A stretch of 64,000 nt of DNA from Burkholderiales bacterium (GTDB lineage Bacteria; Pseudomonadota; Gammaproteobacteria; Burkholderiales; SG8-39). The stretch covers positions 5,408 to 69,407 of the forward strand of contig DASREB010000117.1 in assembly GCA_035652275.1 (NCBI GenBank), read 5' to 3'. A program made the position numbers and the translations under genes. Below, one piece after another: positions 59,484-63,090 of the stretch (its first letter is position 1; the number at the start of each line of letters is the position of its first letter). The notes under the pieces were generated by a model. The model worked only from the letters and a program-made list of their open reading frames with translations, searched no databases and was not told the origin of the DNA.

Positions 59484-61598
59484 ATGAGCAGCGTCCTTGC
59501 CGCGGGCCGCAACTGCTGGCGGATAGAACGAGCGAAGCGCCTTGCGTTCTTCATCGACGCGGCGGACTACTTTGCTGCAGTGCGCGCGGCGATCCGACAA
59601 GCGAAGAGGAGCGTCTTCATCCTCGGCTGGGACATCGACAGTCGCGTGCGCCTCGTGCCACAGGGCGCGAACGACGGCTATCCCGAGGAGCTCGGGCCAT
59701 TCCTCGAGGAGGTGGTGCGGCGCGAGCGCGGGCTTCGCATGTACGTGCTGAGCTGGGATTTCGCGATGGCCTTTGCGCTCGATCGCGAATGGGTTCCGCT
59801 CTACAAGCTCGGCTTGCGCACCATGCCGCACCCGCGGTTTCACTTTCGCCTGGACGGTCGCCACCCGGTGAGCGGCTCGCATCACCAGAAAGTGGTGGTG
59901 GTCGACGATCGCGTGGCGTTCGTCGGCGGCCTTGATCTCACGCACGGCCGCTGGGACACGCCCGAGCACAAGCGGGTTCAGCCGTTGCGCGTCGATGTGC
60001 GCGGGCGCATCTCGCGGCCGAACCACGATGTGCAGGCGATCGTCGATTGCGGCGCCGCGCGCGCGCTCGGCGAACTTTGTCGCGTTCGCTGGTTACACGC
60101 GAGCGGCGAGCAGCCGTACGTCGAAAATATACCCCTGCCCGACTCGCACGATCCCTGGCCGCGCGATGTGAGCGCTGAGATCACCGCGGTCGAGGTTGGG
60201 ATTGCGCGCACCGACCCCGGCTTCGCCGACGGCAAGCCCGTGCACGAGATTCGCGCGCTCTATCTCGGCGCCATCGCTAGCGCGTGTCGTACGCTCTACA
60301 TAGAGAACCAGTACTTCAGCTCGAGCGAGCTTGGCGCGGCGCTCGCCGGGCGGCTGGCCGAACCCGCAGGCCCTGAAATGGTGGTCGTTTCCCGGCTCAC
60401 CGAGGAAGGCTGGCTCGAGGCGCGCACCATGGGCGCACTGCGCGGCGTCCTGCATCGGCAGCTAAAAGCCGCGGACACGCATGAGCGCTACCGCCTTTAC
60501 TACCCCTTCATCCCGGGGCTCGAGCGGCCCGATCTCCTGAACGTGCACAGCAAGGTGCTCGTGGTCGACGACGAGCTTTGCACCGTCGGCTCGGCGAATT
60601 TCAACAACCGCTCGATGGGCTACGACACCGAATGCAATCTCGTACTGGAAGCGCGCGGCGAGCCGCGGGTGCGAAGCGTGATCGCCAACCTGAGGAACCG
60701 CCTCCTCGCGGAGCACCTTGCCACGCGCCCGGAGCTGGTGGCTACGGAAATCTCGAGCAGGCGCGGCAGCGTGATCGCGGCCATCGAAGCGCTGCGTCGC
60801 CCGGGCCGCACGCTCGAGCCGATCGATCCCCAGGTGCCGCCACAGGTCGAATCGCTGCTTTCCGCTTCGCTCCTCATGGATCCGGAGCGCCCCGCCGATC
60901 CCGAAAGCCTTGTGCAGGACTTCGTGCCGCCGGATCTGCATCGCCCGATGACCACGCGCGTCGCACTGCTTGCGCTTGTGCTGCTCGCGCTCGCCGCCCT
61001 CGCCTTCGCCTGGCGCTCGACGAGCCTGCATCAGCTCGTGCCGCTTCATGAATATATAGCCGGGGCGCGGTTGATTCCGGTTGCCGGCGTTTTGGCGATT
61101 TACGTCCTTGCAGGACTACTGCCAATCCCGATTTCACTCGTGATCGTTGCCACCGTAGTGGTATTCGGGCCGCTGCGGGGCGGCGGCTACGCGCTCGTCG
61201 GCACGATTGCAAGCGCGGTGCTCGTCTACGGCCTTGGGCGCGCGCTCGGCCGGCAGCGCGTGCGGCAGATCGCGGGGCGGCGTCTGAATCGCATCACTCG
61301 GCGGTTTGCGCGCGGCGGCATGCCTGCAGTCGCGGTGCTGCGACTCGTCCCGGTTGCGCCGTTTTCGCTCGTCAGTGCAGTGGCCGGCGCATCGTTCATT
61401 CCATTCCGGCGTTTCTTTTGGGGCACCGCGCTCGGCATGGCGCTTCTCATCGCGCTCATCGCCTCCTTCTACAACGCGGTGCAGGCAGTGCTCGCCCAGC
61501 CGGGGCCCGTCACCTACGCGACGCTCGCAGCAGCGACGGCCATCGTCGGCGGCGGCGCCTTCGTCGTCTGGCGCCGCTTCAGGGCTGAGGATCAGTAG
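59484..61598 (+). CDS. Phospholipase D / cardiolipin-synthase-like protein (two HKD motifs) fused to a C-terminal VTT (DedA/TVP38-type) membrane domain
   Basis: HKD1 is HHQKVVVVDDRVAFVGGLDL and HKD2 is VHSKVLVVDDELCTVGSANFNNRS. The C-terminal ~220 aa are multi-TM with the block LRLVPVAPFSLVSAVAGAS. ATG at 59484 follows GAGAGGG. Confidence 0.8.
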   Translation: MSSVLAAGRNCWRIERAKRLAFFIDAADYFAAVRAAIRQAKRSVFILGWDIDSRVRLVPQGANDGYPEELGPFLEEVVRRERGLRMYVLSWDFAMAFALDREWVPLYKLGLRTMPHPRFHFRLDGRHPVSGSHHQKVVVVDDRVAFVGGLDLTHGRWDTPEHKRVQPLRVDVRGRISRPNHDVQAIVDCGAARALGELCRVRWLHASGEQPYVENIPLPDSHDPWPRDVSAEITAVEVGIARTDPGFADGKPVHEIRALYLGAIASACRTLYIENQYFSSSELGAALAGRLAEPAGPEMVVVSRLTEEGWLEARTMGALRGVLHRQLKAADTHERYRLYYPFIPGLERPDLLNVHSKVLVVDDELCTVGSANFNNRSMGYDTECNLVLEARGEPRVRSVIANLRNRLLAEHLATRPELVATEISSRRGSVIAAIEALRRPGRTLEPIDPQVPPQVESLLSASLLMDPERPADPESLVQDFVPPDLHRPMTTRVALLALVLLALAALAFAWRSTSLHQLVPLHEYIAGARLIPVAGVLAIYVLAGLLPIPISLVIVATVVVFGPLRGGGYALVGTIASAVLVYGLGRALGRQRVRQIAGRRLNRITRRFARGGMPAVAVLRLVPVAPFSLVSAVAGASFIPFRRFFWGTALGMALLIALIASFYNAVQAVLAQPGPVTYATLAAATAIVGGGAFVVWRRFRAEDQ

Positions 61599-62689
61599 CG
61601 GTAGATCGCCGCCGCGCCGCTGCGCGTCGGCATGCGCGCCGCGGGAACCACGATGACCTGTCCGCCGTTCCTCAGCGCCGCCTCGCCGAGATCGTCGATT
61701 CGCTCATCAGTGCCCGCGTCTTCGTGTTCGGCCTCGAGGAGCAGCGTCGCGACCCGTCCCGCCGATGCGCTTTCGGTCAATTCGTCGAGGTCATCGGTCC
61801 CGAGCTCTTTGGCGCGCGCGGCTCCGAACATCTCCACAAGACCGGAAAGGCGCGCCAGGTAGTGCGGTTCAAGCACGCGCCAGGCACGACGGCGCAATTC
61901 GTCCGCGGAAAGCGATTGCGGATCGCAGTCGATACCATCAGCAAGGAGGAATGGGTTGTGGCTGAAGGCGCGGAAGCGCGCCTGGTTCTCGGCCAGCGCC
62001 GCGAGCACCAGCGGCAGGCCCGACGGCCGCGAGTGCTGCTCGAGGATCGCCCGGTCGAGCGCGCGGAAGAACTTGGAGGTGTCGCGCTCCATCTCGACGT
62101 CCTTCTCGCCGCCCTGACCGTGGTGCACGCCCGCGCCCGCTCCAGGTCCAGAGGCGCCGGCGCGGTACGTCCATACGGACGAGTGCGCCTGCTTGCGCTC
62201 GTCGCCGATCGCCTCTTCCACGATGCGCGGCACCGCCGGATCAAGCTCGATTTCGTCGAGCACGTCGCGGTCGCCCTCAAAGAGGCGCGCGCCGCCCCGG
62301 CTGAGCGCCAGCACCTGGAAGCGCTCGGCCGACTGAAGGATGCGCAACAAGGGCTTGACGTGGAAGGTGTCGGCGACGATGGCGCGCTCGCCTACCGGGC
62401 GTTGCAGGCGATAGATCCTGAAGACGCCGCGCGCGGCGAATGCGGCGAGCGACTCGAGGCTGCGGTTCCAGAAGCGCTCATCGGCCGCGAGCGCGTAGAA
62501 CGGCGCCAGCAGCGCCGCGGCATCGTCGCGCGGGTGTCGCGCGCCAAGGGACGCCTCCAGCTGCTTCACGAGATTGCGGAAGCGAATCGGATCCTGCGCA
62601 TTTTCCGGATGCGAGCGGTGCGTCGGCTGGTAGAGCGACAGACAGGGCGGCTCGTAGCTGCCTTGCAGGAGATCTTCCAACGTCTTCAT
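61592..62689 (-). CDS. eRF1/Pelota-like protein (bacterial archaeo-eukaryotic release-factor family, baeRF3-like)
   Basis: The N-terminus reads [31 protein letters not shown]. The C-terminus reads [13 protein letters not shown]...[24 protein letters not shown], which resembles the ..GGIGAILRY end of eRF1/aRF1/Pelota domain 3. The start overlaps the rnk stop as ATGA. Confidence 0.5.
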   Translation of the reverse strand: [365 protein letters not shown]

Positions 62690-63090
62690 TGCATCTCGCC
62701 CGCCGCCTCCGGTTGGTAAGGCACCGCGGCGATGCGATAGCGCCGCTTGGCGCCGCCCGGCAGCTCCCAGTCGATCGACTGCCCGACCCGCAGGCCAAGG
62801 AGCGCCGTGCCGACCGGCGTCAGGACCGAGATCTTGGCGCTGTCAATGTCCGCGCTTCCGGGATAAACAAGCGTGATCTCACGTCGTTCGCGCGTGCCCT
62901 CATCCTCGAATACGACACGCGAGTTCATGGTGACGACATCTGCGGGGATGGCCTCCCGCGCCACGACGTGCGCTCGCACGAGCTCACGCTCCAGTTGCTC
63001 GAACCGCTTGCCCGGATACGCGTCAACGAGGTGCAGGAGCTTGTCCATGTCTCCCTGCGTCAGGTAAATCGGCGGCAGACCATCGGCCAT
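62686..63090 (-). CDS. rnk: Regulator of nucleoside diphosphate kinase Rnk (GreA/GreB-family RNAP secondary-channel protein), 134 aa
   Basis: The translation is MADGLPPIYLTQGDMDKLLHLV...VVTMNSRVVFEDEGTRERREITLVYPGSADIDSAKISVLTPVGTALLGLRVGQSIDWELPGG. The start is chosen at 63090. The longer 185-aa ORF has an implausible Arg/Ser-rich leader. Confidence 0.85.
   Translation of the reverse strand: MADGLPPIYLTQGDMDKLLHLVDAYPGKRFEQLERELVRAHVVAREAIPADVVTMNSRVVFEDEGTRERREITLVYPGSADIDSAKISVLTPVGTALLGLRVGQSIDWELPGGAKRRYRIAAVPYQPEAAGEMQ

Follow-up and report, generated by a model that had tools for sequence, protein, structure and literature searches.

How is one to read a gene for an RNA polymerase (RNAP) binding protein whose stop codon overlaps the start codon of a gene for a homologue of translation termination factors? 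The question is raised by a locus in the window analysed here – a stretch of 64,000 nucleotides (nt) from a Burkholderiales bacterium (GenBank assembly GCA_035652275.1, contig DASREB010000117.1, positions 5,408 to 69,407 of the forward strand) – in which rnk is followed by a gene for a protein of 365 amino acids (aa) and preceded by a gene for a c-type cytochrome. A preliminary description of the locus had proposed that rnk and its neighbour form a functional pair linking stalled transcription to stalled translation. Our analysis places the 365-aa protein in the Balon family of ribosome hibernation factors and favours another reading: the cytochrome c–rnk–balon block is probably a dormancy operon, which would co-produce a binder of the RNAP secondary channel and a hibernation factor for the ribosomal A site.

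The 365-aa protein is a Balon homologue

That the 365-aa protein has the eRF1/Pelota fold and belongs among the baeRF proteins had already been proposed, and both profile and structure searches bear this out. Pfam baeRF_family3 (PF18845) matches with 144.9 bits (cutoff 31.5; E = 3.8e-42), and the NCBIfam model NF052287 (AOC03_06830 family ribosome hibernation factor), built around the Balon protein of Psychrobacter urativorans, aligns over its full length (residues 8-365 to model positions 4-361 of 361; E = 9.8e-41). The corresponding model for the MSMEG_1130 family, NF052288, gives 23 bits (cutoff 480; E = 3.4e-5). Judged by its profile scores, the protein is a homologue in a sister subfamily and no equivalog of the characterised Balon groups. 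A profile of 146 homologues has a single match in the PDB: Balon (8rd8_B), at 2.7e-39 and over the full length (residues 3-369).

The predicted structure points the same way. An AlphaFold 2 (AF2) model based on the 146-sequence alignment, which includes a second and divergent set of homologues, has a mean predicted local distance difference test score (pLDDT) of 90.7 and a predicted template-modelling score (pTM) of 0.83; a model based on 17 close homologues (pLDDT 51.8) was not used for fold search. Foldseek comparison of the former with the PDB puts Balon (8rdw, 8rd8 and 8rdv) first at ~2e-21, with ranks 1 to 5 taken by Balon and Msmeg1130, followed by archaeal aRF1, Rv2629 (rank 9), eRF1 and Pelota/Dom34. 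The modelled protein has a three-domain aeRF1-like fold, closest to that of ribosome-bound Balon.

The view that baeRF proteins of this type are functionally uncharacterised is out of date. The A site of hibernating ribosomes is where Balon of P. urativorans and its counterparts in mycobacteria have been shown to sit, and ribosomes on which peptidyl-tRNA is still present can take Balon; Balon genes are found within stress operons, and hypoxia induces the mycobacterial homologues, whose genomic contexts are dormancy-associated (Helena-Bueno et al. Nature 2024, PMC10901736). By analogy, the 365-aa protein would bind ribosomes as well. Where its close homologues are named, they appear as "hypothetical protein" or "baeRF3 domain-containing protein"; hibernation factors of the Balon family would be the better annotation.

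Balon contacts the decoding centre through its HP motif and leaves the mRNA untouched. The motif is kept at H27-P28: the stretch P22-T-H-R-S-H27-P28 aligns to THREHP of Balon (HRSHP vs HREHP) and belongs to the best-conserved part of the family, R25 and P28 being invariant and H24 nearly so among the 146 homologues. NIKS was not found in the 365-aa sequence. At the position of the eRF1 GGQ loop the M-domain reads HHGQ192GGEK, and homologues have I, T, E or S in place of Q192; this glycine-rich loop (~165-195; pLDDT 55-64) is the sole low-confidence part of the AF2 model, and may be a flexible loop of the "lasso" type. A GGQ at 342-344 was considered as a release motif and rejected: the model places it at a beta-strand of the C-domain (344-348), and homologues vary at its Gln. 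The protein is predicted to be non-catalytic, like Balon.

A clade of Balon homologues without the C-domain hairpin

Nearly all relatives of the protein carry a two-stranded insertion in the C-domain, and precisely here – between H322 and E323 – the alignment shows a gap of 18-20 residues. The missing segment aligns to Balon residues ~307-326, and the AF2 model has a five-residue loop in its place. A single-sequence phmmer search of the PDB had suggested that Balon itself is hairpin-less; this came from an out-of-register alignment of the Balon C-terminus, which the profile search put right. The hairpin is absent from 49 of 324 sampled family members, all of which belong to the nearest clade of the window protein (62% identity or more; P0001-P0040, P0042, L001, L082, L091 and L092), and is kept in all 275 homologues outside this clade, which come from many phyla.

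One description of the family has this insert where eRF1 carries its zinc-ribbon or minidomain (Burroughs and Aravind, PMC6514570), and another reports a beta-hairpin insertion of the C-domain that is highly conserved among Balon homologues and makes the contact with EF-Tu(GDP) (Helena-Bueno et al., PMC10901736). From the descriptions given in these papers we infer that the two are one element and that the missing segment is the EF-Tu-contacting hairpin. The loss is older and far wider than adjacency to rnk: three hairpin-less relatives (L001, L082 and L092) have Balon beside a RaiA-like gene and not beside rnk. That pairing with Rnk caused the loss was rejected on the same grounds, hairpin-less homologues without rnk being in existence. 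The 365-aa protein is a new member of the known Balon family and its clade a structural variant, not a new kind of system; a natural Balon variant that lacks the hairpin offers a ready test of what the EF-Tu contact is for.

The partner protein is Rnk

The identification of the 134-aa partner as Rnk holds up against both Pfam and NCBIfam. Rnk_N (PF14760; 31.3 bits, cutoff 23.7) and the GreA_GreB C-terminal domain (PF01272; 80 bits) both score over cutoff, as does NF004396 (145.5 bits, cutoff 109), and the best PDB matches are 2pn0 (1.4e-27) and Rnk of Escherichia coli (3bmb; 1.9e-26). On these matches the protein is a bona fide Rnk, and it presumably binds RNAP. It is highly conserved, with many sequence clusters at 77-93% identity; the few whose source is named are mostly metagenome-assembled genomes (MAGs) of Burkholderiales, and from the names on the best matches the host lineage looks like a Burkholderiales-like soil betaproteobacterium.

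Work on Rnk itself has shown that its coiled coil is too short to reach the RNAP active site and that it does not stimulate transcript cleavage; deletion of rnk in E. coli gives no phenotype in normal growth, and it has been suggested that under special conditions Rnk acts as an inhibitor or counteracts Gre factors or DksA (PMC4598747). The suggested role fits a dormancy operon. In Pseudomonas aeruginosa, anoxic growth arrest induces Rnk, with unclear consequence (PMC8632087).

Organization of the three-gene block

The cytochrome c gene, rnk and the Balon-family gene form a tight unit on the minus strand, bounded by a divergent gene on one side and a convergent gene on the other (Table 1). The cytochrome gene ends 37 nt before the rnk ATG; this gap, together with the open reading frame (ORF) coordinates, the ATGA overlap and the terminal strings of the 365-aa protein as first described, was confirmed in the sequence. 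The start codons are backed by the alignment of homologues. Both rnk and the Balon-family gene are real genes under purifying selection: relative to an 88%-identical relative, dN/dS is 0.09 for rnk and 0.20 for the gene of the 365-aa protein. The cytochrome protein has a weak Pfam match (Cytochrome_CBB3, E = 1.6e-4, under the gathering score); it is 97-98% identical, and its position unchanged, on the related contigs L081, L093 and L104-L107.

The geometry suggests that the three genes are co-transcribed from a promoter that would lie upstream of the cytochrome gene, and it is compatible with coupling of the translation of the Balon-family gene to that of rnk. Genes within operons very often meet in a 4-nt ATGA: taken alone, the overlap is therefore not unusual and is no proof of translational coupling.

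Rnk neighborhoods in related genomes

Nine Rnk proteins (78-100% identity to that of the window), picked by contig number and length only, gave nine arrangements, in which S30AE genes were checked by hidden Markov model (HMM). The order seen in the window, cytochrome c–rnk–ATGA–Balon, is arrangement A (Rnk 92-100%). In B (87%) a DoxX gene precedes rnk, which is joined by ATGA to a CBS-Pirin gene and followed by cydAB; in C (85%) rnk is joined by ATGA to a RaiA-like gene, itself joined by ATGA to CBS-Pirin. In D (84%) a RaiA-like gene and a small ORF follow rnk after 45 nt, while in E (84%) the RaiA-like gene and rnk are divergent and 157 nt apart. Arrangement F (81%) has a fusion of S30AE with a cold-shock domain, then a universal stress protein (Usp) gene and rnk, amid cydAB and further Usp genes; in H (79%) two Usp genes precede rnk, which is joined by TGATG to a RaiA-like gene with another Usp gene beyond. 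The remaining two are G (79%), an MFS gene followed by rnk, and I (78%), in which rnk stands alone amid unrelated genes.

A hibernation factor is thus found no more than two genes from rnk in six of the nine arrangements. In four it is directly downstream on the same strand, three of them with overlapping codons at the junction. The factors come from three genes that are not orthologous to one another (Balon, the short RaiA-like protein and the S30AE-cold-shock-domain fusion), and rnk, balon and raiA-like genes occur in all three pairwise combinations within the clade. The Rnk-linked RaiA-like proteins (131-135 aa) align to the whole HPF/YfiA model with scores under the NCBI cutoff. Because Rnk orthologues of one clade are recurrently coupled to HPF/RaiA-like factors, a link between Rnk and ribosome hibernation is plausible; that rnk is overlap-coupled to two unrelated families of hibernation factors in related genomes makes this a concrete hypothesis for Rnk function. 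Rnk is not among the published Balon neighbors. No association of Rnk with hibernation factors or with baeRF proteins was found in the searchable literature, and the recurrent coupling of this Rnk lineage to unrelated hibernation-factor families appears to be unreported.

The exact rnk–Balon pair has a narrower distribution. A metagenome scan with a single protein returned ten loci, of which one was informative; the other contexts were obtained protein by protein. The order cytochrome c–rnk–ATGA–Balon is present on five independent metagenome contigs, on which Balon is 86-99.7% identical (82% over the 34 residues present on L106). The ATGA is kept wherever the junction is present (L081, L104 and L093).

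Further features of these neighborhoods were noted. The CBS-Pirin fusion protein (~390 aa; L094 2793-3965, L096 1633-2811, L106 1-614) is an alternative ATGA-coupled partner of Rnk or of the RaiA-like protein, and in the window lineage its gene is ~2.4 kb upstream of the cytochrome c–rnk–Balon block. On L100-L103 the S30AE-cold-shock-domain fusion that adjoins the Rnk orthologue has 190 aa (loci on L100: 2396-2968, plus strand, and 6332-7294, minus strand); a protein encoded nearby joins a GNAT acetyltransferase to a zinc finger of the DksA/TraR type, another module of the secondary-channel-factor kind.

Weighing the dormancy operon against its alternatives

Several observations weigh against the dormancy operon, among them the poor conservation of the pair. 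A scan of GTDB with one genome per species gave 564 confirmed relatives of the Balon homologue. The 80 best loci, which span 50-65% identity and no fewer than a dozen phyla, were searched by tblastn with the window Rnk, over as much as 6 kb of flank if the contig was long enough. At none of these 80 loci is rnk upstream of the Balon gene; one unrelated copy is situated 1.8 kb downstream on the opposite strand. Upstream neighbors are heterogeneous (ATP synthase subunits, porins, phosphoketolase, superoxide dismutase, GH15 and others). The same-strand downstream neighbor is S30AE (HPF/RaiA) in at least 21 of 62 cases, and a purpose-built HMM finds an S30AE gene somewhere in 36 of the 80 loci; these S30AE counts speak for the functional linkage, not against it. 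Closer relatives lose rnk too: the 82%-identical Balon homologue is preceded by a short-chain dehydrogenase, the 73% homologue stands in the order Ferritin–Balon–RaiA-like–Usp, those at 70% and 65% have a RaiA-like gene downstream, and one MAG has Balon and Rnk on separate contigs. The expectation that rnk adjacency would prove conserved is, for the exact pair, largely refuted: it is a recent, lineage-restricted juxtaposition (Balon identity ~86% or more).

The wider linkage has its own weaknesses. Three of the nine arrangements within the clade lack a nearby hibernation factor, and in arrangement B Rnk is ATGA-coupled to CBS-Pirin, a partner with no ribosome link: Rnk may be no more than the gene that leads off stress operons. 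The nine arrangements share ancestry and do not count as independent in the statistical sense. Outside the clade – nine rnk loci on plasmids or chromids of eight other genera, with Rnk 37-49% identical – raiA is within 2.5 kb of rnk at one locus, on a Microvirga plasmid, and eight are without it. A general rule connecting Rnk with hibernation across bacteria was therefore rejected; the linkage is limited to the clade, and its count is uncorrected for shared ancestry. Turning to the locus itself, a scan of 61300-64000 found neither a sigma-70 promoter consensus nor an intrinsic terminator. Finally, the 365-aa protein scores 140.4 bits against NF052287, whose equivalog cutoff of 330 is not reached; with the hairpin missing as well, its mode of action may differ from that of Balon.

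Three other explanations have to be set beside the dormancy operon. The one that takes most from these observations, possible though in our view clearly the lesser candidate, is that rnk and the Balon gene belong to one reshuffled stress regulon or island and came together incidentally, so that they share regulation and nothing else. It accounts for the narrow range of the adjacency; for the variety of partners downstream of Rnk (Balon, RaiA-like, CBS-Pirin or nothing); and for the permutation of cytochrome bd, Usp, Pirin, CNNM, GNAT and PS_pyruv_trans families among the contigs. Yet a genome has few genes for hibernation factors, and three kinds of them stand next to Rnk or one gene further off in six of the nine arrangements, with overlap in three; such recurrence is hard to obtain by shuffling alone, even in an island of some tens of genes. 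Should the linkage be co-regulation only, the locus would be one more case, and an ordinary one, of the known class in which Balon belongs to a stress operon.

Much less credit is due to the view, closest to that of the preliminary description, that the 365-aa protein is a Pelota/eRF1-like factor which rescues or releases stalled ribosomes and is paired with a factor for stalled RNAP. The eRF1/Pelota fold speaks for it, as do the earlier idea that some baeRF families act in rescue, which Burroughs and Aravind considered (2019, PMC6514570), and the binding of Balon to ribosomes with peptidyl-tRNA. The motifs speak against it, however: the M-domain has no GGQ, there is no NIKS and no equivalent of Pelota loop A, the Balon-specific HP motif is kept, and every hibernation complex of the Balon family is among the top structural matches; Rnk for its part has too short a coil and no cleavage-stimulating activity (PMC4598747). 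Joint rescue is unsupported, since the catalytic features that a rescuer would need are absent from both proteins. What survives of the proposed functional pair is a link to hibernation, plausible as joint shutdown. Just as improbable is a physical complex of Rnk with the hairpin-less Balon, in which Rnk would replace or bridge the EF-Tu contact, or tether RNAP to hibernating ribosomes. Translational coupling would favor stoichiometric co-production, and the clade does lack a hairpin that all other sampled homologues retain; but the loss predates rnk adjacency and is much wider, as shown by the hairpin-less Balon genes that have a RaiA-like gene and no rnk beside them.

A proposed model of joint shutdown

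Under the dormancy-operon reading, the operon would be induced by a dormancy signal, plausibly oxygen or energy limitation judging by the neighboring genes, and one mRNA would yield the periplasmic lipoprotein cytochrome c, Rnk and the Balon homologue, the outputs of the last two being tied together by the overlapping stop and start codons. During growth arrest the Balon homologue would, by homology, enter the A site of vacant or still-translating 70S ribosomes. Its HP motif would contact the decoding centre with neither mRNA recognition nor peptide release, and the ribosomes would be silenced and protected; in the hairpin-less clade, entry would presumably proceed without the hairpin-mediated contact to EF-Tu(GDP). 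Rnk may at the same time tip the polymerase away from what it does with Gre factors or DksA, or do no more than park it. The transcription and translation machineries would then be damped or parked at once: joint shutdown, not joint rescue, perhaps with the two proteins acting in synergy.

A stronger version of this model, which we regard as rather unlikely, makes Rnk, in this betaproteobacterial clade, a secondary-channel "parking" counterpart that is stoichiometric with whichever factor follows (Balon or RaiA-like) and silences RNAP in step with the ribosome, with EF-Tu docking lost or replaced in the hairpin-less clade. If true, it would give a physiological role to Rnk, a protein without known function since 2008, and would define a coordinated hibernation of transcription and translation. 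Balon itself was described only in 2024.

Features of the locus and its surroundings

Table 1. Coordinates of features in and around the cytochrome c–rnk–Balon block of the window
Feature	Position	Strand	Basis or remark
Divergent intergenic region, 98 nt	63479..63576	.	Between cytochrome c gene (-) and glucokinase gene (+); presumed operon promoter region
Glucokinase gene	ATG at 63577, runs off window	+	Orthologue in L104/L105 annotated as Glucokinase (PF02685)
Lipoprotein c-type cytochrome, 116 aa, first gene	63128..63478	-	Lipobox LALAGC, haem motif CQGCH
rnk, 134 aa, ATG at 63090	62686..63090	-	RNA polymerase secondary-channel binding protein (Pfam, NCBIfam, PDB matches)
ATGA stop/start overlap, rnk/Balon-family gene	62686..62689	-	rnk TGA 62688-62686, next ATG 62689-62687
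Balon-family (baeRF family 3) gene, 365 aa, hairpin-less	61592..62689	-	Pfam, profile, AF2/Foldseek
Convergent 3'-end overlap, 7 nt, Balon-family gene/PLD-VTT gene (operon end)	61592..61598	.	ORF coordinates
PLD-VTT membrane protein gene	59475-61598	+	Pfam PLDc x2 + VTT_dom
Divergent short HPF/RaiA-like (S30AE) gene, outside the operon, 22 kb away	39310..39708	-	Pfam Ribosomal_S30AE 40.8 bits (cutoff 23.7)
Usp	37590-38009	+	Near RaiA-like gene
CNNM/CorC	38014-39297	+	Near RaiA-like gene

The end of the window beyond the block (63481-64000, plus strand) translates to MESSLHTLAADVGGTNARFAIAE. On the other side, the convergent PLD-VTT protein is phospholipase D/cardiolipin-synthase-like, with two HKD motifs and a fused VTT/DedA-type membrane domain; an AI-2E family transporter gene (58503-59459) precedes its gene.

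The window has a RaiA-like gene of its own, outside the block. Its product aligns to TIGR00741 over the full length (8.6e-6, under cutoff), has basic N- and C-terminal tails, and is 70-77% identical to the Rnk- or Balon-linked proteins of L096, L098 and L092; its orthologues stand directly after Rnk or Balon in related genomes. The surroundings agree with the dormancy or stress island that had been proposed: the window holds a cytochrome bd oxidase, GNAT, Usp, CNNM/CorC, RaiA-like and FtsH genes and two two-component systems, along with 6-phosphogluconate and glucose-6-phosphate dehydrogenases, transketolase, transaldolase-PGI, phosphoketolase and acetate kinase, and two enzymes that resemble GH15/trehalase or glucodextranase. 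On related contigs these families are again found around Rnk.

Many of the metabolic genes form a long same-strand run (6438-29024, plus strand) devoted to carbon reserves and alternative central metabolism: genes for 6-phosphogluconate dehydrogenase, glucose-6-phosphate dehydrogenase, a GH15/trehalase-like enzyme, transketolase, a transaldolase-PGI fusion and two HAD phosphatases are joined by those for phosphoketolase, acetate kinase, glucodextranase, a Rieske-FAD reductase and a MOSC-FNR-Fer2 protein. Phosphoketolase and GH15 genes are found upstream of Balon homologues in other phyla too.

The second Rnk-like module reported for the window is also real. At 2960-3949 (plus strand) an extracytoplasmic function (ECF)-type sigma factor (Sigma70_r2 and r4_2; NCBIfam NF008888, 212.7 bits) carries a C-terminal Rnk-like GreA/GreB domain, which scores 85 bits against NF004396 over aa 206-318 and is 40% identical to the window Rnk. 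A sigma factor with its own secondary-channel-binding module is unusual: no description of an ECF sigma-GreA/Rnk fusion was found in the ECF reclassification paper, and a literature search returned nothing relevant. Adjoining the fusion are genes for a Cys-rich DUF326 protein and a zinc-independent GTP cyclohydrolase, FolE2 (4194-4787 and 4591-5457, both minus strand), a pair that hints at a metal-limitation response beside it.

Three of the plasmid-borne rnk loci from other genera have notable neighbors of their own. On plasmid 1 of Paracoccus denitrificans PD1222 (L135; NC_008688.1, 208283-214690), rnk comes directly after periplasmic nitrate reductase genes, namely napA and those for a cytochrome c-type subunit of nitrate reductase and a protein of the cytochrome c3 family; here, for the second time, the gene right upstream of rnk encodes a c-type cytochrome or serves anaerobic respiration. 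Plasmid pMVF16-5 of Microvirga sp. VF16 (L129) has raiA, PTS-IIA and rnk, then two more Gre-family factors within 4.5 kb; it and pCMU01 of Methylorubrum extorquens CM4 (L136) carry clusters of several Gre/Rnk-family genes.

Comparison with known systems

The closest characterised counterpart of the 365-aa protein is Balon of P. urativorans (8RD8/8RDV/8RDW, chain B), with which it shares the aeRF1-like fold, the PTHRxHP motif, the lack of NIKS and GGQ, and surroundings of stress genes; it differs in that identity is only ~20-22%, that rnk precedes its gene and that RaiA does not follow. Msmeg1130 and Rv2629 (PDB 8V9J/8V9L/8V9K) have the same fold (Foldseek 3e-15 to 3e-11), but belong to another subfamily, to other organisms and to other operon partners. 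With aRF1/eRF1 and Pelota/Dom34 the protein has the fold and the C-terminal ..AAIYRY ending in common, whereas GGQ, NIKS and Pelota loop A are absent and the Foldseek matches are weaker (9e-14 to 1e-5, vs ~2e-21 for Balon).

With respect to gene order, the nearest precedent is the published Balon-RaiA or baeRF-HPF neighborhood (PMC6514570; PMC10901736). The family of the window protein shows it, including hairpin-less relatives at 65-73% identity, whereas in the window the RaiA-like gene is 22 kb away and the neighbor is rnk, which is in neither paper's lists. The closest known counterparts of the window Rnk, in turn, are E. coli Rnk and the secondary-channel binders Gfh1 and Rv3788. It shares with E. 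coli Rnk (PDB 3BMB; Lamour et al. 2008) the architecture of an Rnk_N domain followed by a GreA/B C-domain; a point of difference is that, at this locus and in sister lineages, rnk is the leading gene of pairs in which it is tightly coupled to a hibernation factor.

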